The position numbers were made by a program, and so were the translations under genes. DNA of 64,000 nucleotides from a virus: the IMG/VR virus record IMGVR_UViG_3300028840_006907, positions 1 through 64,000 of that record, one strand, 5' to 3'. The notes under the pieces were generated by a model. That model saw nothing but the letters and a program-made list of their open reading frames with translations. It did not search any database and was not told the DNA's origin. Positions 4,225 through 52,312 of the stretch are shown here, piece after piece (position 1 is the stretch's first letter; every line of letters starts with the position of its first letter).

Positions 4225-5053
4225 AATCAATTTCTTCCGATAAGAGTAATTTGAAAAATGTTTCAGCCAATTCTTGTTCAAAGAATTTTGGCTCTCGAAT
4301 TTTTATAGTATCAAGCTTTAATAGATCTGCAAATGAATCAATTTTGATATCAATCTCTGGATCTATTAAAGGTTGACACCATTCCATCTCTTTCAACATA
4401 TCTGGTGTGAGAAATGTTTTTGCAATAAAAATATCCCCTAAATCTTCCAGGGCCAAGACTCCCATTCGAATATTTAAATAGCAATAACCATCTTTCATAG
4501 CATATTCTTTATTGCTATTTAAGATTAATCCGACTAGGATATCAGCACTAGTTGGGTCAGTTTTATAAATCCTTTTTAAATCCTCTGTGAGGGGGCTGTA
4601 TGCCCTTGGATCCACTCGTTCTTCTAGTCGCTCAATGCAGTGTGAGGTGACGAAGATATTCCCACAGGAGCCCCTATTCGGGCTCCCATACAATATCCCG
4701 CTATTTTTTATTTTATATACTCTATTGAAGTTAGTTTGGTAGGAAGCATTCCCTACACCTTTGAATTTTATATTGGTTAAGTTTATCCAGCGACCATATT
4801 TAGATCTTAATTTTTGTAGGATTTTTTCTTTTATGGCTTTTTGTTTTCGTTGAGGAATTCTTTTTTTCTGGTAATTTTTTCCACATATTTCATCGAATGT
4901 GCGGGACCAGATGATACTTATCATTGCATCTGGATGTTCTTCGAACGTTGATACGTTATCTTTACCGAAATGTTTTTTTAAAAGTTTTAGGTAATAATTT
5001 TCTTCTTCTTTGCCGTATTTGCTTACTATCCATTGAGAGGGATTCTTTTTCAC
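4217..5053 (-). CDS. hypothetical protein
   Basis: 278-aa ORF overlapping SpoVG-like gene stop by 4 nt. Confidence 0.5.
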   Translation of the reverse strand: MKKNPSQWIVSKYGKEEENYYLKLLKKHFGKDNVSTFEEHPDAMISIIWSRTFDEICGKNYQKKRIPQRKQKAIKEKILQKLRSKYGRWINLTNIKFKGVGNASYQTNFNRVYKIKNSGILYGSPNRGSCGNIFVTSHCIERLEERVDPRAYSPLTEDLKRIYKTDPTSADILVGLILNSNKEYAMKDGYCYLNIRMGVLALEDLGDIFIAKTFLTPDMLKEMEWCQPLIDPEIDIKIDSFADLLKLDTIKIREPKFFEQELAETFFKLLLSEEIDYE

Positions 5054-5307
5054 TTGTTTAGCTCCGCTTCGTATTCATCTAATACGGCATTTTCAATAAG
5101 TATTCTGGTTTCATTTTGTATTGGATGTACCATATCTACAATTTTACCAGTTTTTGTTTTTCTGCTTGGCATTGCTACAAAGTGCCCTTGCGCTCCTTCA
5201 ATAATTTTCAATCCTCGGACAATAAAGCAATCATCAAGAACAATATCAACAAAAGCTCTTACATTTCTGCTTCTATGCATTGTTACTTTTATTTCAGTAA
5301 TTTCCAA
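5050..5307 (-). CDS. spoVG: SpoVG-family nucleic-acid-binding protein
   Basis: MEITEIKV...FVAMPSRKT...HPIQNETR matches the conserved SpoVG core along its length. Confidence 0.85.
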   Translation of the reverse strand: MEITEIKVTMHRSRNVRAFVDIVLDDCFIVRGLKIIEGAQGHFVAMPSRKTKTGKIVDMVHPIQNETRILIENAVLDEYEAELNK

Positions 5308-5352
5308 TTTTTGCCTCCTTAAATACAGAGCAAATATTACTACGAAATGAGA

Positions 5353-6360
5353 TTAATCTACCCATTGAATTTTTCTACGGTACTGACCTGTTACTTCATC
5401 TATATCAGAGACATTTCCTGCTTCCTTTACTATTAAATTTAATTTACGTTTTAATTCTAGCTGAAGATCATCACTTTTTATTATTTCGGGAGAAGTATGT
5501 TTCTCCAAAAAATTATTTTTTAAATCAAGCAATTGTTTTTCAATGCTCACATCTCCAACAAAATTGAGTTCTGAAAAATCATCAATAAATTTTTTAAGTG
5601 AATTAATAGTAGGGCCTTTAACAATTTTCCCTGATTTCATATTGGTGGCGATTTTATCACAAAGAGTTACTACTTGTTCACGAAGATTTGTAACAACCTC
5701 ATTGATAAAAGAACCAATCTTTTCTTGGGCCTCTTTCTGATAAACATCGTAGGCAATATTCTCTTTTGCAATTTTATCTTCAGAAACTTTTCTCATTTTC
5801 GGTAGAGCAATTTCAAATATATTCCAGGTTAAAGAGAACCTATTTCTTAATGAAGTTGTGCTTGGATAGTATGATTTTATTCGGTCAAGAAAATTTGTGA
5901 CGAATTCTTCCTCTTCGTTTTCTTTACCTTCAATACTGAATTCATGAACACCTATTTTTGTTTGTCGGTTATAGGCAGCTTTGGCTGCTTCCTCATAAAT
6001 AGGTAGCATCTCTTTTCGTAATTTGTCGTAATCAACAATCAGGTTATCGATTAATTTATTATATGCCTCCTGATATTCCTGAAGAGTTTGCAGTATTTTT
6101 AAAAATTTCTTTTTGGGTACAAACCGTGCTGAACTTATAGGGAATTTAAAACTGTTCGTCTCAACTAGAAACCGAGCTTTACTTTCAATAGATCTGAATT
6201 TATGTATGGTTTCTTTTGGAACGAGCATCTTCTTACCAAGAAGATAAACATTAGATATAGTGTCTTTTTCTAATCCCAAGTCTTGAGCAGTCAGGATTTT
6301 TGCTCCAGTCCAGAACCGCACTTTAATTTCAACTAAAACACCATCTTTAAATATATCCAT
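5353..6360 (-). CDS. DUF3150-like protein (plasmid/phage-associated)
   Basis: N-terminal VLVEIKVRFWTGAKILTAQDLGL pattern recalled as typical of DUF3150; 335 aa. Confidence 0.4.
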   Translation of the reverse strand: MDIFKDGVLVEIKVRFWTGAKILTAQDLGLEKDTISNVYLLGKKMLVPKETIHKFRSIESKARFLVETNSFKFPISSARFVPKKKFLKILQTLQEYQEAYNKLIDNLIVDYDKLRKEMLPIYEEAAKAAYNRQTKIGVHEFSIEGKENEEEEFVTNFLDRIKSYYPSTTSLRNRFSLTWNIFEIALPKMRKVSEDKIAKENIAYDVYQKEAQEKIGSFINEVVTNLREQVVTLCDKIATNMKSGKIVKGPTINSLKKFIDDFSELNFVGDVSIEKQLLDLKNNFLEKHTSPEIIKSDDLQLELKRKLNLIVKEAGNVSDIDEVTGQYRRKIQWVD

Positions 6361-6386
6361 AATTATTTTCCTATCATTAATAAGTG

Positions 6387-6420
6387 CTGTCCCTTTAATG
6401 AAAAAGGGACAGTGTTTTTT
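6387..6420 (+). terminator. hairpin plus T-run oriented for plus-strand transcription
   Basis: ctgtcccttt...aagggacag stem followed by tgtttttt, overlapping stop of 6419-7981 gene. Confidence 0.35.
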
Positions 6421-7981
6421 ATAAGTTTAATTTCCTTTTACCTATTACCTGTTCAGCCTTCATCTCTATTGAAGCTTTTTTCACTCTACGTTTTTCAGAC
6501 CATTCACGGCCTTTCTTAATATCCTCGGCATAAAGCTGTGCTGTAAGTGATACTTCTTTAGCACTTGTAACAAGATCTTCAGTGGAGATTTCCTGATTTT
6601 TGCTGAATGAAAATTTCAGAGTATCATTAATCCAAACTTCAATTTCAGATCCACTAAAATCTTTAGTGGATTTAACTAATTGCTTTATGTCGAAGTTGCT
6701 GGGGTCACGATTTATTTTTCCCAAATGTATTGAGATAATTTTCTCTCGTTCACTATCATAAGGGAAATCAACCCAGAAGATTGCATCCATACGACCACCA
6801 CGAATTAGTTCAGGAGGTAGTTTCGTTGCATCGTTTGAAGTAGCTGCAATGAATACATCAGTTGTTCTTTCAGCCATCCAGGTTAAAAGTGTTGCTAGCA
6901 TTTTTTGAGAAGTCTCATGAACATGCCCACTTTTATTATTAGGAAAAGCTTTTTCGATTTCATCTATTCGTAAGACACAGGGAGCATTTGCATCAACGAT
7001 ACTGAGACATCTTCTTATTTTCTCTTCTGATTCTCCTACAAGACTGCCTAAGAGTGCACCTACATCAAGACTGAATAATGGTCGTTCCCAAACATTGGCG
7101 ATAACTTTTGCAACAAGAGATTTCCCGGTTCCAGGAGGGCCTACGAATAGGGCACCTTTGGGAGGAAGTATTCCATATTCTCTGGCTTTCTCAGTGAAAC
7201 AATTCTTTCTAACCAGGAGCCATTCTTTAAGGTTATCAAGTCCACCAATGTCATCAAGAGTTTCTGTTACACTAATAACATTTAAGAGCCCTGTGTTTTT
7301 AACAACTGTGGCTTTTTCTCTATTAATAACATTAATGTCAAGACATTTTCTTTCAACAATGGAAAGAGAATAAGCATTCTCAGCTTCATCAGATGTCATT
7401 CCTAAGGCTGCTTCAATAAGGGAAGTATCGTTTTTGGGGTACTCTATGGAATCTTCAACTGATCTAGCGTTTTCATAAGCTCGTTGACATACTTTTCTTA
7501 AAGTATTTGTATTTGGAAGTTTAAAATCAATTACAGTTATTTCTTTCTTTAATTCATCTGGTATTGATGAACAGCAAGAAACAACAGCCAAAACTCTACC
7601 GGTAGATCTGCAGATTGGAATTATATTTCGTATTTTTCGTTGAATAAAATCTTTTTTAATATAATGGTGGAAATCTAATAGAAAAAAGATAGAATTCTCT
7701 TCCACCTCTTCTGAACTTATCCAATTAAGAGCCAACATTGGATCATCTGTTTTAGTTTTTATATCTAATTTATTTTCTAAAAGGATATTATTATCATTTA
7801 TTTCTCGGAGTTTGATTCCATCAACTCTGTCCCAAGAATAAAATTTATAATTTCCTTTGTCAAGTTTGTTCATTTCATTTGCTAGGGTTCTTATCGCCCT
7901 ATGTTCTTCATGGGTCTGTATCCACAAAATTGTATAACCGGCACGTATATAATTTGAAAAGATGTGTTCTTTATTTTCCAT
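6419..7981 (-). CDS. AAA+ ATPase with N-terminal domain of unknown function
   Basis: Walker A GPPGTGKS, Walker B VLRIDEIEKA, sensor region TSNDATKLPPELIRGGRMD. Confidence 0.85.
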   Translation of the reverse strand: MENKEHIFSNYIRAGYTILWIQTHEEHRAIRTLANEMNKLDKGNYKFYSWDRVDGIKLREINDNNILLENKLDIKTKTDDPMLALNWISSEEVEENSIFFLLDFHHYIKKDFIQRKIRNIIPICRSTGRVLAVVSCCSSIPDELKKEITVIDFKLPNTNTLRKVCQRAYENARSVEDSIEYPKNDTSLIEAALGMTSDEAENAYSLSIVERKCLDINVINREKATVVKNTGLLNVISVTETLDDIGGLDNLKEWLLVRKNCFTEKAREYGILPPKGALFVGPPGTGKSLVAKVIANVWERPLFSLDVGALLGSLVGESEEKIRRCLSIVDANAPCVLRIDEIEKAFPNNKSGHVHETSQKMLATLLTWMAERTTDVFIAATSNDATKLPPELIRGGRMDAIFWVDFPYDSEREKIISIHLGKINRDPSNFDIKQLVKSTKDFSGSEIEVWINDTLKFSFSKNQEISTEDLVTSAKEVSLTAQLYAEDIKKGREWSEKRRVKKASIEMKAEQVIGKRKLNL

Positions 7982-7998
7982 TTTTCAATTCCTTGAAT

Positions 7999-8202
7999 TT
8001 AAAATTGATTGACTATCTGCTTTATTACTAAAATTCTATTAAGGATTTTATTGTAGGATAGATTTAATTCGTTTTGAATATCTTTAAATGAATAGTTATT
8101 CAGAAAATAAAAAGATGCTATAGTATAAGTTATCCTATCTACTTTTGACTTTAAATAATTCATAATGTCTTTGGAATAATTATTTGCATGTGGCATATTC
8201 AT
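7999..8202 (-). CDS. sigma-70 region-4-like HTH protein
   Basis: ITYTIASFYFLNNYSFKDIQNELNLSYNKILNRI is paralogous to C-terminus of 8180-8800 product. Confidence 0.35.
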   Translation of the reverse strand: MNMPHANNYSKDIMNYLKSKVDRITYTIASFYFLNNYSFKDIQNELNLSYNKILNRILVIKQIVNQF

Positions 8203-8800
8203 TATCCTTTGACTTTGAAAACTTATATACTATTTGTTTAATTTTTGTAATTTTTCTGAGGATTGTATTGTAGGATACTTTTGCAGTATCTTGAATTTCT
8301 TTCATTGAATAACAATCCAGAAGATAAAGACATGCAATGAAATAAGTTATATCATTGAGTTGATTTCTTAGATATTTCATGGTTTCATCAGAGATCAAAG
8401 TATCATCTATTGTTTCGTTAAAGTTAGGCCGGGTAGTATAATCAATATGATTTTTAAGGGTTTTATTATTATTCCTTTCTTCACCATCACTATTATTTTC
8501 ACGCATTGTGATATACATATCAATAGGGAAAAATTTAGGTCTTCGTGATATTGTTCTTATGTAATGAAGGGCATAGCCTTGAACTTTATGTACAAAATAT
8601 GTTTTTAAATAACATCCTTTTGAAAGATCATATTGTTCAAGTAACTCGGATTCAGCTAGTTTTAAAATGAGGTGTTGAAACATCTCACATGGTTCAACAA
8701 TTTTCACAAATTTCATAATGTGAAAATTTAAAATATAATCAATTTCTTCTCTGTTTAGGGTATAGAATTCCCAGAAGTCAGGGTGATATTTTAAATCCAT
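8180..8800 (-). CDS. putative sigma-factor-like transcription protein
   Basis: C-terminal ITYFIACLYLLDCYSMKEIQDTAKVSYNTILRKI resembles sigma-70 region 4.2 HTH. Confidence 0.4.
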   Translation of the reverse strand: MDLKYHPDFWEFYTLNREEIDYILNFHIMKFVKIVEPCEMFQHLILKLAESELLEQYDLSKGCYLKTYFVHKVQGYALHYIRTISRRPKFFPIDMYITMRENNSDGEERNNNKTLKNHIDYTTRPNFNETIDDTLISDETMKYLRNQLNDITYFIACLYLLDCYSMKEIQDTAKVSYNTILRKITKIKQIVYKFSKSKDNEYATCK

Positions 8801-8809
8801 AATAAAACC

Positions 8810-9064
8810 TCATTTTGTGAGACCATCAATTTCTTTCTGGACATTGGTCCAATATTCATGGTCGGTTCCGTTTCCTTTAATTGTGTTAATTTTTTCTCGA
8901 ATCCTTTTTGTTTCTTTCGAGATTTGTCTTTGTGTATTTATGTTTGAAACAGCTCTGTCAGATAGATCATGTGACAGAGCATCAAATGATTTTCCTATAG
9001 CATTCATGATCTTTCTAAGAAAGATCAGTATAGCGATAAGTCCGATAAATGCTAAAAGGGCCAT
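8810..9064 (-). CDS. small membrane protein
   Basis: N-terminal hydrophobic helix ALLAFIGLIAILIFL. Confidence 0.4.
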   Translation of the reverse strand: MALLAFIGLIAILIFLRKIMNAIGKSFDALSHDLSDRAVSNINTQRQISKETKRIREKINTIKGNGTDHEYWTNVQKEIDGLTK

Positions 9065-12355: not shown

Positions 12356-13540
12356 TTATCCTCTTACATAATCAGTTACACAGTTAATTTCATCATCACT
12401 TATCCAGGCACCGTGATATCGTTCAGGTTCAGAAGCACCAGGATAAATCATTAACATATCTCCCTTACCGGCCAGAGCTTCAGCTCCATTGCAATCAAGA
12501 ATAACTCTGGAATCATTTTTGGATGATACTTGGAATGAGATCCTTGAAGGCATATTGGATTTAATAAGACCAGTGATAACTTTAACGATAGGCTTTTGAG
12601 TTGCAAGTACCAGATGGATACCTACTGCTCTGGCTAATTGAGCCAACCGTACGATCATTTTCTCAAGTTCTTTACCTGAAGTCATCATAAGATCAGCCAT
12701 CTCATCAACCACAGTTACTATATAAGGAAGTTTTGTATCGGAATTTTTATTAAAACTTTCGATATTTCTTACTCGATAATCAGCTAAGAGTTTATATCTA
12801 CGATCCATTTCTTCAATTAAATCTGAGAACACATGCACCGCTTCTGAGGGCTCGGTAACCACAGGGCATCTCAGGTGGGATAAATTATTATATGACGCCA
12901 TTTCCACTCTCTTGGGATCGACAAGGACAAGCTGGCATTCATCTGGTGTTCGAGTAAATAATATTGAAAGAAGAATACTATTTATACATACAGATTTACC
13001 TGATCCAGTTTGACCTGCGATTAAAAGATGAGGCATAGTAGTCAAATCGATTATTTTTGGATTACCAATAGTATCGGTTCCAAGTACGATGGGAATCTTG
13101 GTATTGGAATCAGTGGTAAAGATATCACGGAAACCGATAATGGATCTTGTTTCATTCATCATTTCTATTCCAACACAAGCTGTACCTGGAATGGGTGCTT
13201 GGATTCTGATATTGGATGACATTAAAGCCATTGCGATATCTTCAGTGATCTTTTTAATCTGAGCAATCCTTACACCTTTTGATAATTTCAGTTCATATCG
13301 GGTAACCACTGGGCCATGTTTAATATCCTGGACAGCAGTATCGAATCCAAGTTCAGCGATCCTGTTTTCAAGATCATGAGAGCTTAAACTGTTGGGTATT
13401 CTATTGGATGAATACTCGTTTAAGAGTCCTAAATGAGGTTTTCTATATCTTTTGTTTTTCTTCTTTTTACATGCATCTTCCTCGGAATTAAGGAGTTGCA
13501 TTACATTTAAGAGCTTTCTGAATTTTGTTGATTTGTTCAT
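12356..13540 (-). CDS. FtsK/SpoIIIE-family DNA translocase motor (alpha/beta domains only)
   Basis: GPVVTRYEL, APIPGT..VGIE, Walker A GQTGSGKS, Walker B VVDEMADLMM; no N-terminal TM or gamma domain. Confidence 0.8.
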   Translation of the reverse strand: MNKSTKFRKLLNVMQLLNSEEDACKKKKNKRYRKPHLGLLNEYSSNRIPNSLSSHDLENRIAELGFDTAVQDIKHGPVVTRYELKLSKGVRIAQIKKITEDIAMALMSSNIRIQAPIPGTACVGIEMMNETRSIIGFRDIFTTDSNTKIPIVLGTDTIGNPKIIDLTTMPHLLIAGQTGSGKSVCINSILLSILFTRTPDECQLVLVDPKRVEMASYNNLSHLRCPVVTEPSEAVHVFSDLIEEMDRRYKLLADYRVRNIESFNKNSDTKLPYIVTVVDEMADLMMTSGKELEKMIVRLAQLARAVGIHLVLATQKPIVKVITGLIKSNMPSRISFQVSSKNDSRVILDCNGAEALAGKGDMLMIYPGASEPERYHGAWISDDEINCVTDYVRG

Positions 13541-13698: not shown

Positions 13699-14712
13699 AT
13701 GAAATATTTAATTTCTCATCAGATAAAAGTGTTGGCGAATTGTTTAGAGAACTATAAAGAGGTATGGGATATAGTTCCTATAATGATGCGGATCTCTTTT
13801 GAGAATCCCAAATTAAGTATGAAAGAGATTCAGGTTAAAAGTAAGATGGAAAATTATGGGAATCTTTTTTCAAGAATAATGGCAGATTTAAAAACTGCTC
13901 AGGAAAAGAATATTGTTTTCAAAAGACCTCATAAAGTTTTTAAGCAAGCGGATGATTTGCTTGTGTTATTTAATAAGTTGACAGGTAAAAAAGAAACCAC
14001 AAGTGAGAGTTCTGAAAATGAGTTATTAGATATTGTTAATATCCTTTCTGAAAATGTCAAACCTTTATCAAAAAGACCAAAGTGGGAAATTGAAAATCTT
14101 AAGGTCATGGATGATATCGATGCCTTAATGAAGAAGTTTCCTTTTACCATTCAAACGGTATTGCAACGCTCCATAAAAAGGAAAGAAGAAATAGAGCAGG
14201 AATTGGGAAAAGGTGTCACAGCAAAAAGAGAAATAAAAGTGTATCTCGATATGGATAGTTGTATCACCGACTGTGACAAGGCTATCAGGAAGCTAGGACC
14301 GAAAGTTGCCAAAGGTTTAGCAGATGATGCTTCCGAGGAAGAGAAGCAATACATGTATGATAAGATTGAAGAGAAGGGGGCTGAGTTCTGGTCTGAAATG
14401 GAATGGATGCCCAAAGGTGAAGAGCTTTGGAAAGTGGTAAAGAAATATGATCCTGTTTTGCTGTCCTCACCAGGATTATTTAAATGGGCTCCTGGTGGAA
14501 AGAAAAATTGGGTAGATAAAAATATTCCAGGAACAACTTTGTATCTTGATATTGACAAATATCAATGGGCTGAACCCGACTCAGTTCTCATCGATGATCG
14601 GGTTTCAAATATAGAGAGTTGGAAAGAGGCCGGTGGTGAAGCCATCCTTTATGAAAATGATCCAGAACTCGTTAAATTAAAACTAAAAGAGATCATCAGT
14701 CAACCGGGGTAA
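13699..14712 (+). CDS. protein with C-terminal HAD-like 5'(3')-deoxyribonucleotidase-type domain
   Basis: YLDMDSCI (DxD-type) and C-terminal VLIDDRVSNIESWKEAGGEAILYEND; only long plus-strand gene in the left arm. Confidence 0.45.
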   Translation: MKYLISHQIKVLANCLENYKEVWDIVPIMMRISFENPKLSMKEIQVKSKMENYGNLFSRIMADLKTAQEKNIVFKRPHKVFKQADDLLVLFNKLTGKKETTSESSENELLDIVNILSENVKPLSKRPKWEIENLKVMDDIDALMKKFPFTIQTVLQRSIKRKEEIEQELGKGVTAKREIKVYLDMDSCITDCDKAIRKLGPKVAKGLADDASEEEKQYMYDKIEEKGAEFWSEMEWMPKGEELWKVVKKYDPVLLSSPGLFKWAPGGKKNWVDKNIPGTTLYLDIDKYQWAEPDSVLIDDRVSNIESWKEAGGEAILYENDPELVKLKLKEIISQPG

Positions 14713-15269: not shown

Positions 15270-17330
15270 TTATTCCACAGTGCGAACAAGTAAATATTTA
15301 GCTCCATTATATGTTGGAAAGTATGAATAATAATTTCCTCTATTGAAGAAACTTTCGGTCATAGTAAATTTTACCATTGGATCAATTACTGATGGACCAG
15401 TATAATCAGTTTGTGATTCACCTGGAATCGCATTTTCATATTTATCATTCAATCTGATCTCTCCCAGGACCACTACACCATTATTAAATGCGTAATGGAA
15501 TTCAGCTTCAGTAGAAATTCGGAATCCATTCTTGGTCAGATCCATTTGAATATCCAAACTATCAGTATAAGTATAAGCTGTATCCAATCCAGCACCTTTT
15601 GATTTCTCGTTACAGTATTTTATTGCTTCAAAGTAATTACCTAAACTGTAGGTAGTAGTATCAAACCAGAAATCATAACTGAAACTGACATCGATAGGAG
15701 GTAAAGGAAACCAATGATATTGGTATACATTATTCTGTAATTTACCGAACATGGTAGATTGATTTTTCGATTTTATCTTATACTCACCATTAAATAGGAA
15801 AAGAACTTTAAGTGTAACAGTATCCAAAGCAGTATTACCATCATCATCGGTAACCCGAAGGACACATTCAATAACAGAATCTGAGTTCATTGGAATAACA
15901 TATTCATATTTACTGGTATCTGTAGCAGATTCATCTGTAACAAATGTTCCGGTATTCCCAATGTCCCATTCCCATTTTACAATGTGACCATAGCCATCTG
16001 TGGCAGTACCATGAAGAATAACTGTATCTCCTACAACAATCATAGAGTCACTGTTATTAACGAGGAAAGAAGGTCTGCACTGTCCTTCAACAAAGGTACT
16101 CGCTATAGGCTCATCTTTGACCACTGTAACAGTTATTTGATCTGAAGATGTGTTACCATCATTATCAGTAACTCGAACCACATAGACCATATCACCATTT
16201 CTTTGTCCGGTGACATCGGGAACAATCACTGAGGTGTCACCTGTGCTTGTTTCTTTAAATCCTTCACCATTAATATCCAGTTCCCATTTTGAGATTCCTC
16301 TGCTACCGATAGGGTCAGTGGCAATACAGGTAATATGGATTGTATCATAGATACTAACAGTAGTATCATTTCCTATAATCTGTACTTCTGGTTTTGCATT
16401 TTCTGCACTAAAGGGAGGAATTTCAATATCACCAGCTATACTATTGAAAAGAATATTTGGACTTTGACCGATAAGTTTATCTTGGTTATTAAATACATCC
16501 ACATACACATTATATTTATTTGTACCTACAGAATAAATGAAGTAAACGAAACCACTATAGGTATTACTGGAAGTATTATGCCAGAGTTCAGCGGTCTTGG
16601 TACCATTGATATCATCACCAGTAATATTGGCTTGGATAAGGCTGATTGTATCAGGGAAAAACATAGGTAAGTATAAGTTTCCATAGATATCTCTCTGTAT
16701 GACAAACAGATCCGGTAGGGTATCAATCCATTCACTGATATTGGTAGTAGAGAGTACTTGGTTATCTTTAATCAGATTTAGAGTATCATTAATATCATCT
16801 TGTGATAATCTAGCAAAGACACCACCACTGATTGTGGCATTGTCCCCGATCCGGGTTAAACTTGGTTTACCTCTATCATAGAGACTTGGTGATTTAAAGT
16901 TATGTACTTTATTGCCAATCTTTAATTGAACGATATACATTTGTGCTGATAAACCAGTGGCAGGATTAATTGAATAGTTACCAGGATCAAGTTTTCGGTT
17001 TAAAGCAGTGAAGACATTTTGACCACTCAGATTATATACCTTAATAGAAACCTGAGTTTTCTTAAGAACCGGGAACCAGAGTCGAGAGTTATCATATTTA
17101 ATTGTATTAAGGGATACTGAAGATTGGTTTTTAATATCATTGGAAAGTTTTGATAAGATATAGATACCATCAGCACCGGTAGTATCAGAAATACCTTGTC
17201 CTTTTAATGTCGCAATAACGCCAAACATCGGACTGTTATTGTTGTCCAGAACCTTACCTGTAATATATAAGTCCTGGGCATTAACTGTAATTAATAAAAA
17301 TAAAACGATAAGAATAAAAGATTTGTACAT
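15270..17330 (-). CDS. secreted multi-domain protein with CarboxypepD_reg-like and PKD-like repeats
   Basis: Signal peptide MYKSFILIVLFLLITVNA; GKVLDNNNSPMFGVIATLKGQGISDTTGADGIYIL; two VRVTD(N/D)DGNT PKD-like units. Confidence 0.7.
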   Translation of the reverse strand: MYKSFILIVLFLLITVNAQDLYITGKVLDNNNSPMFGVIATLKGQGISDTTGADGIYILSKLSNDIKNQSSVSLNTIKYDNSRLWFPVLKKTQVSIKVYNLSGQNVFTALNRKLDPGNYSINPATGLSAQMYIVQLKIGNKVHNFKSPSLYDRGKPSLTRIGDNATISGGVFARLSQDDINDTLNLIKDNQVLSTTNISEWIDTLPDLFVIQRDIYGNLYLPMFFPDTISLIQANITGDDINGTKTAELWHNTSSNTYSGFVYFIYSVGTNKYNVYVDVFNNQDKLIGQSPNILFNSIAGDIEIPPFSAENAKPEVQIIGNDTTVSIYDTIHITCIATDPIGSRGISKWELDINGEGFKETSTGDTSVIVPDVTGQRNGDMVYVVRVTDNDGNTSSDQITVTVVKDEPIASTFVEGQCRPSFLVNNSDSMIVVGDTVILHGTATDGYGHIVKWEWDIGNTGTFVTDESATDTSKYEYVIPMNSDSVIECVLRVTDDDGNTALDTVTLKVLFLFNGEYKIKSKNQSTMFGKLQNNVYQYHWFPLPPIDVSFSYDFWFDTTTYSLGNYFEAIKYCNEKSKGAGLDTAYTYTDSLDIQMDLTKNGFRISTEAEFHYAFNNGVVVLGEIRLNDKYENAIPGESQTDYTGPSVIDPMVKFTMTESFFNRGNYYSYFPTYNGAKYLLVRTVE

Positions 17331-18539: not shown

Positions 18540-19607
18540 TTATGGTTTAAATTCTTTATCTATGGCATATTTAATCAATCCAGAGAAATGTTCCAAAACA
18601 TCTGGATATTGAATTGAATTAAATATTTCATGGGATAAATTAGAATTATATTTTTGATTATCTACAGTAATATAAGGAGCGAAAGTTTTACCTACAGTTC
18701 TGTAATATAATTTTTCAAATTTATTTAAATTATTTGGAAATTTATCAACAAATTCAAATTCCTTTACATTTAGCATATTTAAAATAACGGAAAAGTATTC
18801 TTTATGTAATGGAGGATTTGGGTTTATTATATTAAGTTCTGTAAAATCTTCATTGATAGATTTACATATGATTTTAGCAACATAATCTACAGGAACAATA
18901 TTAAGAGTTTCATTTAAATTAATGTGGATTCTAATTGGCATATCCATTTTATATCTATAAAAAAAGTATGCCCAACCATAGAATACATCAAATTTTAAAG
19001 TAATATATAAAGGGAAATCAATTAAACGACCACAGATAACTGAAGGTCGTAATATCTGATAATGAATATTATATTTTTTACAATAACTTGATATATATGT
19101 TTCCATAGTTGATTTAGTTTCTTCATAGGGATTTCTATAAATATTTTTAATTCTATTTACAAATGCTGTACTTATATAAATAAATTTATAAAGTTTTTTA
19201 CTATCGATATTATTTATCAAATTTATAGTTCCCAAATTATTATTTAATAAAAGTTCTTGTTCTGTAGCTTTATCTGTCATTAAATTTGTTGAAGCGGCAC
19301 AATGTATTACTGTCAATTTCTTAGTATCAATATTAGAAATTATATGAAATAATTCTTTACAATTTAAATGACATGGGATAATTTGAAACCTTTCTTTAAG
19401 TATATTTATTGAATATTTCTTTATGAATTCTGGAATATTTTCTGGAGCAAAAATATTTATGCCTCTTTCTATAGGAGTCATATTATTAAAAGGTCTAATT
19501 AATAAAAAAAGTTTAGATGATGAATTATATCTAATAATTTTTTCAAGCAATTCAAAAAAGATATGACTACCTAATAGACCTGTAACGCCTGTAATTAAAT
19601 AATCCAT
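18540..19607 (-). CDS. NAD(P)-binding epimerase/thioester-reductase-like protein
   Basis: N-terminal ITGVTGLLGSH Rossmann motif, YISTAFV, YEETK (YxxxK). Confidence 0.55.
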   Translation of the reverse strand: MDYLITGVTGLLGSHIFFELLEKIIRYNSSSKLFLLIRPFNNMTPIERGINIFAPENIPEFIKKYSINILKERFQIIPCHLNCKELFHIISNIDTKKLTVIHCAASTNLMTDKATEQELLLNNNLGTINLINNIDSKKLYKFIYISTAFVNRIKNIYRNPYEETKSTMETYISSYCKKYNIHYQILRPSVICGRLIDFPLYITLKFDVFYGWAYFFYRYKMDMPIRIHINLNETLNIVPVDYVAKIICKSINEDFTELNIINPNPPLHKEYFSVILNMLNVKEFEFVDKFPNNLNKFEKLYYRTVGKTFAPYITVDNQKYNSNLSHEIFNSIQYPDVLEHFSGLIKYAIDKEFKP

Positions 19608-20851: not shown

Positions 20852-20897
20852 AATGGGGTGGCTCCCATCATCTCATTTCTCCCCGGCTTTTCCGGGG
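20852..20897. other. GC-rich structured element: ATGGGGTGG box plus CCCCGG-N5-CCGGGG hairpin (copy 1)
   Basis: atggggtgg...ccccggcttttccgggg in intergenic gap; second copy at 45640-45669. Confidence 0.4.
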
Positions 20898-20973: not shown

Positions 20974-21882
20974 TCAATACTTCGACTGATTACATCCATG
21001 ATTAAATTTGTATTCATTTAATTCATCATTGGACATATGTCCATGTTTCTTGATCGTTTCTTCTAAAATCTGAGGTAATAACTTTTCACCCCAAACTCCC
21101 ATGTTCGGGACAATCTCTCCTCTTGAATTTTTGGATTTGGTAGGGTCTCCTTCAAGAGCATTGGCTCTGATTTTATTTCGTTCCAGTAGCTCCCATTCCT
21201 CATAGTCCTCACGATAAAATCTGTACAACCATAAAAGTTCGATCTCACTCATGAAAGGACATAATAAACAGTTCGATGGATAAGGCACATGCAAGCCCGT
21301 AGAGGCCATGTAATCCTGGCAATCCTTTCTATCCATTCCCATCTCTATGAGTGGATAGATAACCTCTATGGCTTTCTCCTGCCATTTTGGGCGCTCACCC
21401 TTGTTAACACGTTTTTCTTCTCCTTTGGCAATACCGATAAGCATATTGATTTTATCATATGTTTCAGCAAATTGTTTCAATCCTTTCTTTCTTCCTGATT
21501 TAAATCCATATTCTTTTTGAATCCAGTATTCGAGATATTTATATATAGGTCTCAATTTAAGTCTTTCGGTACAAGTTTTGGGAAAACATTTGCTTCCAAT
21601 TCTATTTTTTGTTTTATAGAAAAATCTTAATGTTTGCCAGTCGGGAGAGTGGAATCCCATGTCGTTTGTAAGATGAACAAATTCTACTACATTTTGAGAA
21701 CAGAATTCCTTTATAAATTGTATATGTTTATAGGTATGGGGATGCTCATCACCAGTATCGGCCATGATCACCAAAAGCCGTCCTGGTGCATATTTTTTTC
21801 TGAAATTGTTATCGAGGGCGTACTTGTAAAGTAAAGTGGTGCTGTCTTGTCCGCCCCCGTAACTTAAGACCGTAAGTTCCAT
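20974..21882 (-). CDS. PAPS-reductase/ATP-sulfurylase-like (adenine-nucleotide alpha-hydrolase) protein
   Basis: N-terminal LSYGGGQDSTTLL PP-loop variant of SGGxDS. Confidence 0.65.
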   Translation of the reverse strand: MELTVLSYGGGQDSTTLLYKYALDNNFRKKYAPGRLLVIMADTGDEHPHTYKHIQFIKEFCSQNVVEFVHLTNDMGFHSPDWQTLRFFYKTKNRIGSKCFPKTCTERLKLRPIYKYLEYWIQKEYGFKSGRKKGLKQFAETYDKINMLIGIAKGEEKRVNKGERPKWQEKAIEVIYPLIEMGMDRKDCQDYMASTGLHVPYPSNCLLCPFMSEIELLWLYRFYREDYEEWELLERNKIRANALEGDPTKSKNSRGEIVPNMGVWGEKLLPQILEETIKKHGHMSNDELNEYKFNHGCNQSKY

Positions 21883-22707
21883 CTATTTATTTTTCTCCTG
21901 GTTTGAAGTATCTTTTTTATAAAGGATAAGATCCTTTATTTCATGAGGATTATAATAGAATTGTGTACTCGGATTTTCTTGAGCCATTGAAGTAATTGTT
22001 TTCAGTAATTCTTTTATTAATTGATTTTCTATAGTTTTATATTTTTGAGATGGTAATGGCTCTCCTTTCTTTATAAATAAATTTCTTCCTTTGCATAGTA
22101 AAAGTACTCTACCTCTATTAATCAAATAAGAAGCTTTTTGTTTTGTTATCCCAACGGATTTAGCCCATTCATCAATAGACTGATAACCTGATGGTGGTTT
22201 AATATCTTTCAGTTTTGGTTGAAGAAGAGAAAGGTTTGAAAAGAATTGTTTATCTTTATGTCTATTTATTCGATTACCTTTACAATGTCTACAAGGTTTT
22301 TTACATAAACCTATAAAATGTATTCGTAGATTTCCACAATTTTTACAAAATCCAAGTCTAGGTTTATTTAAAAATAATGTTTTTAGACGCTCGGGATTAT
22401 GATAAATCTGTCTATATTCTTTTCTCTCATTAATTGTTTTGTCTTTGTCATAAGGTCTTGTAGGGATACCTGTATAATATAAATCTATAGCCTCTTTATT
22501 ATATTCTAAAAAAGATACCCAGGCTTTTTCAACTAATAATTCTGGGTCTTTTTTAGCAAGACTTACATGTATATCTTCAAAAAATATGTTATAATTTGAG
22601 AGTGTTTTAAATCCTTCATAAAGCTGTTCCATATCCCATACATGAAAGATATACCTATTAGCATGAAAGCAATTGAAGGCATCTAAAATTTCATCATAAT
22701 CCATCAT
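21883..22707 (-). CDS. zinc-finger protein with HTH-like segment
   Basis: CKNCGN...CKKPCRHCKG cluster; abuts PAPS-reductase-like gene. Confidence 0.5.
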   Translation of the reverse strand: MMDYDEILDAFNCFHANRYIFHVWDMEQLYEGFKTLSNYNIFFEDIHVSLAKKDPELLVEKAWVSFLEYNKEAIDLYYTGIPTRPYDKDKTINERKEYRQIYHNPERLKTLFLNKPRLGFCKNCGNLRIHFIGLCKKPCRHCKGNRINRHKDKQFFSNLSLLQPKLKDIKPPSGYQSIDEWAKSVGITKQKASYLINRGRVLLLCKGRNLFIKKGEPLPSQKYKTIENQLIKELLKTITSMAQENPSTQFYYNPHEIKDLILYKKDTSNQEKNK

Positions 22708-23279
22708 TTCTCCAATTGTACCAAAATTCTCACCAAGTCACTTTTAGTGAAAGTGACATTACCTACTATAAGTTTTCCCCTTTTTATTTGATAAGGGAGA
22801 GAAATATCTGCTGATTCTTTTTGTGAAGTTTCAATAGCTTTGGTAGTTTTAAGGGATTCAATATAAGCTCTTTGTTCTGATCGATTACGAATATGGTCAG
22901 AAGCAAAAACTTGTTTTACTTGATCTGGTTGAAGATTATGTATACTTACTTTCAACACATCATTATTTGGTAATAAAACATCTAGAGGTTCTTCTACATA
23001 TTTAGATTGTTCTGCAAAAGAACATTTTCCAAGTTTCTTTGCCCCTGTTGTAAGATTAGTGAGGAGTTTTACATGAAGAGAACCTCTTCCTACAGATTCA
23101 AACCTGCGCCATGCAGTAGAGGAAATATCAGGATAGGCTTCTTGAAAATCGTATATTGCATCTGGATTGTCATCTATTGTTTTAACATATAGCTTACATG
23201 CTTTTAAAAGATATCCAATACCTTTTGTAAATAACTCTCCAAATTTATTAATTGCTGTTTCTTGAATATTATTTTTCAT
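22704..23279 (-). CDS. hypothetical protein
   Basis: 191-aa ORF, 4-nt overlap with downstream gene. Confidence 0.5.
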   Translation of the reverse strand: MKNNIQETAINKFGELFTKGIGYLLKACKLYVKTIDDNPDAIYDFQEAYPDISSTAWRRFESVGRGSLHVKLLTNLTTGAKKLGKCSFAEQSKYVEEPLDVLLPNNDVLKVSIHNLQPDQVKQVFASDHIRNRSEQRAYIESLKTTKAIETSQKESADISLPYQIKRGKLIVGNVTFTKSDLVRILVQLEK

Positions 23280-23499
23280 TTATTGTACCTTCTAAAGAAA
23301 TATGTGAATTGAATCCTTTAGAGAAATATTGTGCTGGGTTAAATTTAAAAATTGCTATTCCTCCTATTGCCACAAGAAAAATAAAGAGAATGATTCTCCC
23401 GATCTTTCTTGGCAATTCTTTTCTTCGACGTTTAGCCATAAAATCTTTTTCATTTATTTTCATTATTATCCTCATTATTATCCTCATTATTATCCTCAT
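23269..23499 (-). CDS. small membrane protein with N-terminal (MRII)n repeat
   Basis: 12-nt tandem repeat encodes MRIIMRIIMRIIM; then basic stretch and TM helix; start set to first ATG. Confidence 0.35.
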   Translation of the reverse strand: MRIIMRIIMRIIMKINEKDFMAKRRRKELPRKIGRIILFIFLVAIGGIAIFKFNPAQYFSKGFNSHISLEGTINEK

Positions 23500-23508
23500 T
23501 ATTATTAA
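23461..23508. repeat. 12-bp tandem repeat, about 4 copies
   Basis: cattattatcct x3 plus one degenerate copy. Confidence 0.9.
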
Positions 23509-23708
23509 TCGCACTTTACATGGTAATTTAAGAATGATGCTTCATCCCATTTTTTTCCATTGTCTAATACAACTATATCACCTTCCCGTTCAATGACGGG
23601 AGGTTCAATAGCAACGACAACAACAATATCATTGTCTAATGTGCTTCGATATTTTATTCCAATTTCAATCATATCCTTCCTCCTGGTTAAATGGCATACT
23701 CCATCCAT
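23505..23708 (-). CDS. hypothetical protein
   Basis: 67-aa ORF. Confidence 0.35.
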   Translation of the reverse strand: MDGVCHLTRRKDMIEIGIKYRSTLDNDIVVVVAIEPPVIEREGDIVVLDNGKKWDEASFLNYHVKCD

Positions 23709-23887
23709 TTTAATTGTGCCCTTTCCATAAAGGAAAATTTATTATCGATCATCCAGGTTTCTAATTCATTTTTATTCTTGAAGTATCCGGCTTTTACTTT
23801 CCTGGTTAATAAGAGCATCAATTTAAATTTATTCATAGCTTCTGTTTCCATTATATCTTGGTTCTTTAATCTCAGGTATTGAGGCAT
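23687..23887 (-). CDS. hypothetical protein
   Basis: Start set to ATG at 23885-23887, preceded by AGGAGGA. Confidence 0.4.
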   Translation of the reverse strand: MPQYLRLKNQDIMETEAMNKFKLMLLLTRKVKAGYFKNKNELETWMIDNKFSFMERAQLKWMEYAI

Positions 23888-23903
23888 TATATCCTCCTTA
23901 ATT

Positions 23904-23918
23904 ATTATAAGAGATCTC
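23904..23918 (-). promoter_or_regulatory. GAGATCTC palindrome fused to TATAAT box
   Basis: Minus strand reads GAGATCTCTTATAAT, then AGGAGGA and ATG. Confidence 0.4.
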
Positions 23919-24247
23919 AGATAAAGATTCAATATGAATCTTTTAGAATACATTTAATTATATGATTTTTACATACATACGAAAGGCGTAATGGCAAATG
24001 CTATAAGAAAAATAGCAAGAAGAATGAGGCAGATATCGGGTGATTTCATAACATTTTACTCCTTTAAAAGATAGAACTTTGAATTTTTTGGGGTTTCATT
24101 ATCAAAGAAAGCTATTGCTATAATATCTCCTTTGACAAAGAATTGAGTTGCATTCCTAATATTATTAATATTGAATGTCTTATCTTTCATAAATTCTTGA
24201 AATTCAATCTCGGTCACAAGGGAAAGCTCATTCATATCTAATACCTT

Positions 24248-50908: not shown

Positions 50909-51517
50909 TTAGTTATAGCGAGTTATTCCGTCACTGGATTCAAAATCCATTGCGAGTATGGTATATAATTCCGTTTCCTGTGTATTAATTGTGTCTGGAT
51001 TGACTTGTCTGGAATATCCATCACTGCTTTCAAAATCCATTGCGAGTGAAGCAAATTCATTTGATATGGTTACAAGCGAGTTAACTGGTTGAATTTCAAC
51101 GATTTCAGTCTGGGTTTGGACTTCTTTAATACATTCATCCATTAAACTATTTAGAGTATCTAAGTCGGTAGTTTTTACGAAGGTTTCCCAGTCCTCTTTG
51201 GACATATTAAAATATTCTCGTACGACTTCGAGTTTATCTATATCTGTTATAGTTTTTACTTTGTTCCCGTTTTGCCAAATACTTTTAGCTTTATTAGTAT
51301 ATATAATCTCGCCTGTAAAGTTATGGTTGAAATTTAACCAGCGAGTCTCGTTATTTACTGACGGGTCAATGACTTCAGCGAGTTTATTACCAAAACGGTT
51401 TATACGATAACGGCCAGTACATTGAACGTTTATCCATTCACGAATTGTTTTTCTTGCGGTTTGGTTTGTGCCATTAATAACAGCACCAATTAATTTATCG
51501 TTCATTAGTATAGACAT
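50909..51517 (-). CDS. hypothetical protein with duplicated C-terminal LAMDFESSDG motif
   Basis: First gene of the leftward array next to the control hub; about 35-nt DNA direct repeat inside its 3' end. Confidence 0.5.
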   Translation of the reverse strand: MSILMNDKLIGAVINGTNQTARKTIREWINVQCTGRYRINRFGNKLAEVIDPSVNNETRWLNFNHNFTGEIIYTNKAKSIWQNGNKVKTITDIDKLEVVREYFNMSKEDWETFVKTTDLDTLNSLMDECIKEVQTQTEIVEIQPVNSLVTISNEFASLAMDFESSDGYSRQVNPDTINTQETELYTILAMDFESSDGITRYN

Positions 51518-51572
51518 AATATTTCCCCTTGTCTAATGTATATATTAACAGTCAATTATTTTTTTCTGTTGT

Positions 51573-51940
51573 CATGAATAATGAAAAAAGTTTAGTAACT
51601 TTCCGAAGTTTTAAGAAACTTTTTCTTTGACGTTTGTTTTTTGTGGCTTTCATGAGTAATGAAAAAAGTTTAGTAACTTTCCGAAGTTTTAAAAATTTTT
51701 TCTTTCATGTAAACTTTTCCTTGTCTACATGAGTAATGAAAAAAGTTTAGTAACTTTCCGAAGTTTTAAAAATTTTTTCTTTCATGTAAACTTTTCCTTG
51801 TCTACATGAGTAATGAAATTAGTTTGGTAACTTTCCGAAGTTTTAAAAATTTTTTCTTTCATGTAAACTTTTCCTTGTCTACATGAGTAATGAAATTAGT
51901 TTGGTAACTTTCCGGAAAAAATTGTAAAAACGCTATTTTC
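51573..51940. repeat. 77-bp tandem direct repeats, about 4.4 copies
   Basis: Units begin at 51573 (degenerate), 51651, 51728, 51805, 51882 (partial). Confidence 0.95.
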
Positions 51941-52312
51941 CTTTATATAGGGGAGAGCCAGAAATCGCCCGTTTGATGTGCGTGATATATACGCCCGAAA
52001 ATGTTCCCGGTTCTAACCCCCCAGTGAAATACCCTTTCCACAAAAGTGAAATACCCCAATACAACTATACCATACCCGACCATACCCCACCCCCGGGACC
52101 TGTCTTCGGGATCATCATCATGCGCTTGCTTTTCGTGCGCTCAATGCCATACCCACCCCCTTTTTGTAAAGATTTTTGGAAGTTGGAAATGGATGGAGTT
52201 AGATTGGATTTTTTGGATGGTAGAAAATTTTGGCTGGTGGGAGAGACCCCACAGTAAAGTACCCGGTTGGTTCAGGGAAGTACCAATATGGTTCAGTGGA
52301 GTGTCTTTTTTG

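Follow-up and report, generated by a model that had tools for sequence, protein, structure and literature searches.

Do three genes that touch one another in a phage genome form one functional unit and, if they do not, what does the enzyme encoded by the last of them do? The question is raised by a stretch of 64,000 nucleotides (IMG/VR virus record IMGVR_UViG_3300028840_006907, positions 1 to 64,000, hereafter the window), where minus-strand open reading frames (ORFs) of 191, 274 and 302 amino acids, called here g1, g2 and g3 from 5′ to 3′, follow one another without a gap. An earlier note, made from the letters of the DNA, had described them as a three-gene operon ending in a PP-loop enzyme like phosphoadenosine phosphosulfate (PAPS) reductase, and had proposed that they form a DNA-modification or anti-defence module. 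The explanation that we favour overall, and for which the case for and the case against seem to us about equally strong, is that g3 is a stand-alone PP-loop enzyme of mobile elements, which might thiolate the DNA of the element itself, and that g1 and g2 are an unrelated pair.

g1, g2 and g3 are neighbours, probably not a module

The coordinates given in the earlier note were exact (Table 1), and the packing is as tight as it had stated. g1 and g2 overlap by 4 nucleotides (ATGA), and the TAG stop codon of g2 directly abuts the ATG of g3, the start of which reads MELTVLSYGGGQDST. Judged by their database relatives, all three are real genes.

Such packing could mean that g1-g2-g3 is a dedicated DNA-modification or anti-defence module, in which g2 targets DNA for g3. 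Besides the tight coupling itself, the invariant four-cysteine zinc ribbon of g2 and its segment resembling a helix-turn-helix (HTH) would suit such a task, and in the Ssp and Dnd systems an enzyme of the PAPS type does come paired with a protein that recognises DNA (PMC12707154). The distribution of the genes argues otherwise. g1 and g2 are adjacent, with no PAPS-like gene at all, in two other contig families (loci L004-L007), while g3 is found without g1 or g2 on a 512-kb contig (L002/L003) and at 60 other loci; all three occur together solely on the window's own contig. None of 62 g3-family loci, taken from IMG/VR phages and bacterial genomes, had a g1- or g2-like neighbour, and a distant PAPS-like gene was present in just 1 of 51 g1-family loci. 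Composition also breaks at the g2/g3 junction. Over the 54 sizeable ORFs of the window, GC content at third codon positions (GC3) has a mean of 0.272 (sd 0.062); g1 and g2 are second and third lowest (0.151 and 0.160) and g3 is third highest (0.363). In addition, g1 sits in replication and recombination modules (see next section), and neither g1 nor g2 matched SspB, DndE or any other defence profile of PADLOC. The module that the earlier note had proposed did not survive these comparisons, and we hold it to be very unlikely. We conclude that the three genes are, in all probability, co-transcribed neighbours brought side by side rather than a functional module. g3 has the look of an accessory gene that was added behind an operon, and the operon genes before it seem to have had another history and another functional context.

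g1 and g2 belong together

Eight close relatives of g1 were found, and an exhaustive search brought the family to 1,194 representative clusters (50% identity), nearly all of proteins of about 190 amino acids. Neither g1 nor g2 matched an entry of Pfam, PHROGs, NCBIfam, PADLOC or the PDB. Three fusion proteins of the g1 family (P0207, P0216 and P0254) contained no Pfam domain, and the AlphaFold2 model of g1 was poor, with a predicted local distance difference test score (pLDDT) of 55.6. In 51 further phage loci (L070-L120), the g1 family lies at a fixed position inside replication/recombination modules, with a DnaA_C-type HTH protein and a DUF3799 PD-(D/E)XK protein upstream and a DnaB helicase downstream. 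A RuvC-like protein was also called upstream, by eye, and Pfam gave no match for its cluster. The g1-family gene is always followed by a gene for a non-homologous protein of 210-300 amino acids, and we consider the two as a candidate replication-initiation or loader-type pair.

At the locus studied here the following gene is g2, for which two syntenic homologs were found (36-39% identity). It is directly downstream of g1 every time (L001, L004-L007): g2 partners g1, not g3. As for the two features that the earlier note had seen in g2, the zinc-finger cluster held, its four cysteines being invariant among the g2 homologs in a three-sequence alignment. The HTH-like segment did not, as it had no support from Pfam, PHROG or PDB comparisons; of the two homologs, one keeps it and one lacks it.

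g3 is a PP-loop ATP pyrophosphatase of the PAPS-reductase type

The enzyme class that the earlier note had assigned to g3, from its SYGGGQDST PP-loop, is almost certainly right. The strongest profile match of g3 was PHROG 424, "PAPS reductase" (E 3e-29; residues 4-238 of g3 align with positions 163-369 of the 460 in the profile). Among the defence families of PADLOC, SspD matched residues 5-237 (profile positions 3-202 of 277, E 2.4e-13), BrxP matched weakly, over residues 3-73 only (E 1e-4), and DndC gave no match at E ≤ 0.1, so that the comparisons suggested in the earlier note were answered positively for SspD, faintly for BrxP and negatively for DndC. When 61 family members were compared with the same profiles, 59 matched SspD (best 3.5e-15), 38 BrxP (best 1e-9) and 7 DndC (best 1.2e-5). 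With Pfam PAPS_reduct (PF01507), g3 scored 17.9 bits (E 0.0032) and did not reach the gathering threshold of 22.5, and just a few of its relatives carry a precomputed PF01507 match. By these scores, g3 is a superfamily relative and not a formal member of PAPS_reduct. The sole NCBIfam match was to TilS_N, at 15.7 bits for a cutoff of 93.6. Ordinary CysH, TtcA, MnmA, ThiI, TilS and QueC were considered as identities and rejected, as no NCBIfam equivalog matched; the earlier note had named such an ordinary sulfate-assimilation or tRNA-thiolation enzyme, along with unmodified phage DNA, as the outcome that would overturn its proposal.

The fold was confirmed by an AlphaFold2 model (pLDDT 95.5, predicted template modelling score 0.91), in which a PP-loop of the SGGxDS type stands at the N-terminus of a Rossmann-like alpha/beta core. 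About 130 residues at the C-terminus are found in this family only. Structural alignments to CysH/APS (adenosine phosphosulfate) reductase, TtuA, NcsA, TtcA and LarE covered just 150-165 of the 302 residues. Against PDB sequences, g3 and its family profile gave noise or no match, and a profile broadened to four groups of PAPS-like proteins of mobile genetic elements (MGE) reached PptA, NcsA and CysD.

The conserved positions of the family are as follows. The PP-loop has the variant form S-x-G-x-G-Q-D-S, and it is not a chance match, as this variant is kept in 59 of 60 members. All 60 have C-[TS]-x2-[LV]-K, whose C104 and K109 are invariant in the two alignments A2 and A7, as are C205 and C208 of the CxxCP motif (56 of 60 members). 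C188, in DRxxC, is invariant in alignment A2; it is family-specific, and also common to PptA. The family tail reads ...HGHC...[YF], with a cysteine inside the last 9 residues in 57 of 60 members; H295 is invariant and C297 is kept in at least 90% of members. This tail is the sole low-confidence part of the model, pLDDT falling to 52-73 over the last residues. A joint alignment of the g3 family with its three sister MGE PAPS-like groups left G11, S14, C104, K109, G150, E155, C205, C208 and E234 invariant. Such a signature suggests an Fe-S cluster and a mobile cysteine. DndC is a PP-loop ATP pyrophosphatase with a three-cysteine 4Fe-4S centre (PMC10853773), and the C104/C205/C208 triad would fit a centre of that kind.

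The g3 family travels with mobile elements

A set of 5.8 billion proteins contained 548 relatives of g3, the best 120 of which are 49-69% identical to it. They are carried by contigs longer than 200 kb, by ordinary phages, and by regions of cultured bacteria that resemble integrative and conjugative elements (ICE). In bacteria (Pedobacter, Sphingobacterium, Pseudomonas, Alteromonas, Marinobacter and others), the copies are situated within ICE- or prophage-like regions. The closest large relative is the 512-kb contig, whose g3 homolog is 65% identical.

In the bacterial loci, g3-family genes have as neighbours PcfJ, ThiF with Prok-E2_D (which we take to be the PRTRC cassette), SRAP and C5 methyltransferases. 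Surroundings of PcfJ/PcfK-like, ThiF/Prok-E2_D and SRAP genes indicate accessory regions of conjugative elements. Eight bacterial and viral loci of Bacteroidota-type elements (L021, L022, L029, L040, L046, L047, L054 and L056) have the g3-family gene amid PcfJ/PcfK-like, PRTRC-like and SRAP genes. The direct neighbours of g3-family genes, 96 in all, were pooled over the loci and scanned with Pfam, which returned C5 DNA methylases (5 genes), PcfJ (2), and one each of N6/N4 methylase, ParB, ART-PolyVal and ThiF. Type IV-B CRISPR loci have a CysH-like protein next to csf/cas7-type genes; no cas-like families came out of this general scan. No other cys genes were found near g3-family genes. Within 8 kb on either side, 9 of the 62 loci contained a methyltransferase, which is about twice the control density; in four cases it was directly adjacent to the g3-family gene and co-directional with it.

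The commonest companion was a second, divergent PAPS-like paralog (23 of 65 loci). It lies within a few kb of the g3-family gene and is often adjacent to it; examples are L002 (10562-11563 and 11862-12746), L009, L013, L023, L032, L056 and L069. The PAPS-like paralogs form three groups, one of which ends in E[SG]CGP[ST]. Next after the paralog of the 512-kb contig comes an N6/N4 DNA methyltransferase. A second PAPS-like paralog was sought in the window and none was found. Another arrangement was seen in L030, where a 799-aa protein with a PAPS-like region and a Walker-A motif (5047-7446) is directly followed by an unusually long g3-family member of 490 aa (7449-8921); the 799-aa protein possibly represents a fusion or an expansion of the system.

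Comparison with known PAPS-type systems

SspD, the ATP pyrophosphatase with a PAPS-reductase domain in SspABCD single-strand DNA phosphorothioation, is the best match of g3 among the defence families, and the PP-loop and cysteine motifs are common to both. The scores are those of a remote homolog, not of an ortholog. g3 has its own C-terminal extension of ~130 residues with the HGHC tail, and its family is carried by phages and ICE-like regions, not by defence islands; no SspA desulfurase, SspB nickase (DUF4007) or SspC ATPase was found near g3-family genes. DndC belongs to the same superfamily, and the conserved triad of g3, spaced C...CxxC, may correspond to its three-cysteine centre, but g3 has no DndC profile match and no DndD (or CxC) ABC ATPase or DndE nearby. 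The likeness to BrxP is weak and limited to the PP-loop region; BrxP, of BREX type 4, is a PAPS reductase fused to DUF4007, with a profile of about 779 positions, whereas g3 has 302 residues, no DUF4007 and no neighbouring brxC, brxZ or brxL. Membership of g3 in an SspABCD, DndABCDE or BREX-4 locus was rejected, the partner genes being not found among the flanking genes.

Many members of PHROG 424 have an N-terminal extension, and g3 lacks the first ~160 positions of that profile. PHROG 424 is presumably linked to ParB/IbrA-type pairs. g3 gave no match to DUF3440, another family of the suggested comparison, and ParB_N was present in just 1 of the 96 flanking genes. On these grounds, g3 was not counted among the PAPS reductases of IbrA-type or ParB-associated pairs. 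With CysH, APS reductase, TtuA, NcsA, TtcA and LarE, g3 shares no family membership at the sequence level.

The best PDB match of the broad MGE PAPS-like profile was PptA (PDB 21fy chain C, E 1.5e-5). Its gene, a solo one, belongs to Vibrio phage vB_VhaP_VH-5 (MN497414.1 18758-19510; L121 4929-5681), where it comes directly after that of the phage RNA polymerase and is annotated as hypothetical in the record. PptA thus resembles g3 in being encoded by a solo phage gene of the PAPS-reductase-like kind. The two proteins are 23% identical (hhalign probability 37%), and hhalign pairs their EHP, C-T-x3-K, GEExR, DRxDC and NCxxC motifs, setting ACTTQLK of PptA against KTCTERLK of g3, and NRNDC against DRKDC. 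PptA is shorter (250 aa), has a loop without Asp (SCGAPS) and no HGHC tail, and falls outside all four MGE PAPS-like groups. We found no paper on PptA, on phage VH-5 or on phage-encoded SspD-like counter-defence in the library that was searched, and a comparative paper on jumbo phages (PMC7824862) makes no mention of PP-loop or PAPS enzymes.

Protein p0018 of Vibrio phage 44E38.1, a PAPS domain fused to a Dam methylase with anti-Dnd activity, is likened here to g3 by description only. Both are phage-encoded proteins with a PAPS-reductase domain; p0018 is a fusion needing or accompanying a second gene, whereas g3 is solo, sometimes adjoining methyltransferases.

What may g3 do?

By analogy with DndC/SspD and with the [4Fe-4S] PP-loop thiolases, g3 would bind ATP and adenylate an oxygen on a nucleic-acid substrate. 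That oxygen would then be replaced by sulfur, drawn from a host cysteine desulfurase and passed on via the Fe-S cluster and the tail cysteine. The likeliest substrate would be the DNA of the element itself, for counter-defence or self-marking. DNA is favoured over tRNA because sequence profiles favour SspD, BrxP and DndC, and because phages and ICE-like regions harbour the family, at times beside DNA methyltransferases. An identity of 50-69% across elements of very different hosts is more readily explained by a universal substrate than by a protein partner peculiar to one host. We therefore propose, tentatively and with a little less than even confidence, that g3 performs a DNA-directed, sulfur-type modification or acts in counter-defence. 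Phage PAPS reductases under Aca regulation figure in the literature as candidate anti-defence genes (PMC13551039), and a Vibrio phage PAPS-domain-Dam fusion confers, with a neighbouring gene, anti-Dnd activity (bioRxiv 10.1101/2021.05.05.442762). Given this precedent, the homology and the mobile-element distribution, a counter-defence role of g3 is plausible.

Other functions have to be weighed against this one. g3 might plug into, or sequester, host partners of Dnd, Ssp or BREX type 4 systems by mimicking DndC, SspD or BrxP. Its homology to these three proteins would serve such a purpose, as would the solo state of the family genes, which come without partners of their own, and the anti-Dnd activity of a phage PAPS-domain protein. 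A pure decoy, however, would do without an intact active site, while here strict conservation extends to the PP-loop, the cysteines and the tail, at 50-69% identity, across elements of Bacteroidota, Proteobacteria and candidate phyla. Such conservation is hard to square with host partners that are sporadic and fast-evolving, and we regard mimicry as doubtful. A [4Fe-4S] tRNA thiolase like TtuA, NcsA or TtcA, tuning translation during infection as other tRNA-related genes of huge phages supposedly do, would explain the structural likeness to these enzymes. Only about half of g3 aligns with them, in the core; no NCBIfam or Pfam tRNA-thiolase model matches it, the sequence profiles point to SspD, BrxP and DndC instead, the family occurs in ICE-like regions and adjoins DNA methyltransferases, and the window contains no tRNA genes. 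An RNA-modifying g3 seems to us unlikely.

It is most improbable that g3 is a CysH-like PAPS/APS reductase, supplying more sulfite as an auxiliary sulfur-metabolism gene, even though public annotations do name its relatives "PAPS reductase" and g3 has a C-terminal cysteine on a tail predicted to be flexible. The cysteine set of g3, as we assume, also resembles that of APS reductase. The C-terminal catalytic motif of CysH and APS reductase is ECG[LI]H, and the g3 tail has HGHC in place of ECGLH. The PP-loop is intact, Asp-Ser included, and of the ATP type, PAPS_reduct stays below its threshold, there is no NCBIfam CysH equivalog match, and the family sits in mobile elements where no further cys genes were seen close by.

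Several points nevertheless weigh against a g3 that thiolates DNA on its own. The known phosphorothioation systems need a large P-loop nucleoside triphosphatase (NTPase) and a DNA-recognition protein (PMC12914056; PMC12707154), and neither partner was found around g3-family genes. No cysteine desulfurase, DndD/SspC/BrxC-type ATPase, DndE or SspB was detected by Pfam among the 96 flanking genes. A Walker-A protein of at least 400 residues was encoded within three genes at 6 of 57 g3 loci, the proteins being heterogeneous, compared to 10 of 50 controls. The enrichment of methyltransferases near the family is weak and relies on small counts; being statistically weak overall, this association was kept out of the main arguments. 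The structural similarity of g3 to tRNA thiolases is as high as that to PAPS reductases, which leaves room for an RNA substrate. The Fe-S cluster is predicted from conserved cysteines, and DNA as the substrate is proposed by analogy. Finally, since g2 abuts g3 with no gap, it is possible that in this one genome g2 serves g3 as a DNA-targeting partner.

A bolder version of the proposal sees in the g3 family an enzyme that thiolates nucleic acid as a single, self-sufficient protein and would put a sulfur mark (backbone phosphorothioate or thio-base) on phage and ICE DNA without an ATPase or a DNA-recognition partner. We give it a low probability. If true, it would amount to a portable counter-defence across huge phages, ordinary phages and conjugative elements, working in about one third of the loci with a second PAPS-like paralog.

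Transcription unit and genomic surroundings

Positions of the genes, motifs and signals are reported in Table 1.

Table 1. Location of g1, g2, g3 and associated features in the window
Feature	Positions	Strand	Description
g1	22704-23279	minus	191 aa, large uncharacterised phage family
g2	21883-22707	minus	274 aa; conserved N-terminal domain, zinc ribbon, HTH-like segment
g2 zinc ribbon CxxC-x14-CxHC	22282-22347	minus	residues 121-142
g2 HTH-like segment	22105-22185	minus	residues 175-201
g3	20974-21882	minus	302-aa stand-alone PP-loop ATP pyrophosphatase, PAPS-reductase/SspD/DndC superfamily (almost certain)
PP-loop SYGGGQDST	21838-21864	minus	g3 residues 7-15
KTCTERLK	21556-21579	minus	g3 residues 102-109; C104 candidate Fe-S ligand, K109 PAPS-reductase-family Lys
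DRKDCQ	21316-21333	minus	g3 residues 184-189; C188, fourth conserved Cys
NCLLCP	21256-21273	minus	g3 residues 204-209; C205-x2-C208
C-terminal tail HGCNQSKY	20977-21000	minus	g3 residues 295-302, carries C297; predicted flexible
Small ORF upstream of g1	23269-23514	minus	listed 81 aa
Small ORF upstream of g1	23505-23708	minus	listed 67 aa
Small ORF upstream of g1	23687-23953	minus	listed 88 aa
Promoter-like TTGAAT-17-TATAAT	23904-23932	minus	consensus match; followed by GGAGG and ATG at 23885-23897
GC-rich hairpin CCCCGG-AAAAG-CCGGGG	20881-20897	minus	3′ of g3 stop
GC-rich hairpin AUGGGAGCCACCCCAU	20853-20868	minus	3′ of g3 stop

The tight coupling seen by the earlier note in its three-gene operon was confirmed, and the extent of three genes was not. 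Upstream of g1, three small ORFs overlap head to tail with each other and with g1; internal starts at about 23463, 23672 and 23887 are likely for them. In L001, the called gene upstream of g1 overlaps its start. The small ORFs probably share a transcription unit with g1-g2-g3, and the latter would then make up the distal half of some six ORFs. The promoter, terminator and -10 signals around this unit are all at the level of consensus matches. Promoter-like sites are no more numerous in the region than in shuffled sequence. The two GC-rich hairpins that follow g3 both appear in the centroid fold, with an overall z-score of just -0.66, and are suggestive of a terminator of the unit; a -10-like box, TGGTATAAT, lies downstream of them, ahead of the next gene. 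Just upstream of g1 there is a perfect 12-bp tandem repeat of 3.8 copies (23460-23505; TCATTATTATCC on the plus strand, AGGATAATAATG on the coding strand). Each unit holds an AGGA resembling a Shine-Dalgarno sequence and an in-frame ATG, which results in MRIIMRIIMRIIMRII at the start of ORF 23269-23514, whose product is membrane-protein-like.

The exact g1-g2-g3 proteins were located on a contig of 469,617 bp. In the window, PHROGs recognised a DNA methyltransferase and an FtsK-like protein, besides families whose function is unknown. The label of huge phage is an inference for the window, since 20 kb of it had no megablast match among deposited phages; neither a capsid nor a terminase gene was recognised in it.

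Other genes of the window were noted in passing. A DNA methyltransferase is encoded at 1501-2574 (PHROG_67, 3.7e-43), an FtsK/SpoIIIE-like ATPase at 12356-13540 (1.4e-95), and a protein with a 5′-3′ deoxyribonucleotidase domain at 13699-14712, on the plus strand. The 686-aa product of 15270-17330 has a signal-peptide-like N-terminus and internal repeats, and no PHROG match. The 168-aa product of 17640-18146 matches Fis/PucR-type helix-turn-helix families (HTH_30, HTH_50, HTH_8) at more than one position, and also PHROG_323, "transcriptional regulator, D5-like". At 18540-19607 lies a gene of the short-chain dehydrogenase/reductase or thioester-reductase-like type (Pfam NAD_binding_4, 5.8e-23), with the lowest GC (22.8%) and GC3 (12%) among the sizeable ORFs of the window. 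Coding strand and GC skew switch together at about 51500-52100: up to ~51.5 kb the minus strand carries the genes and the skew is negative; from ~52 kb the plus strand carries them, the skew is ~+0.3 and GC is higher. A boundary between modules or a switch related to replication might explain the change.

Significance

Solo PAPS-reductase-like genes of mobile elements are a known, functionally unresolved kind, to which g3 belongs. Few accessory genes of phages are annotated as often and understood as little. In the literature they stand as candidates for a part in DNA modification or anti-defence; we found one experimental case, the anti-Dnd activity in a Vibrio phage. The present analysis delimits one clade among them by a testable signature, namely the variant PP-loop, C...C...CxxC and the HGHC tail. 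This clade is unusually conserved (50-69%) over very different elements and travels without Dnd, Ssp or BREX-4 partners. The negative result counts as well: the apparent module is most likely a juxtaposition, and g1 turns out to represent a very large uncharacterised family of replication modules. Should g3 work on DNA by itself, it would make a minimal system of sulfur modification and, with it, a compact tool.

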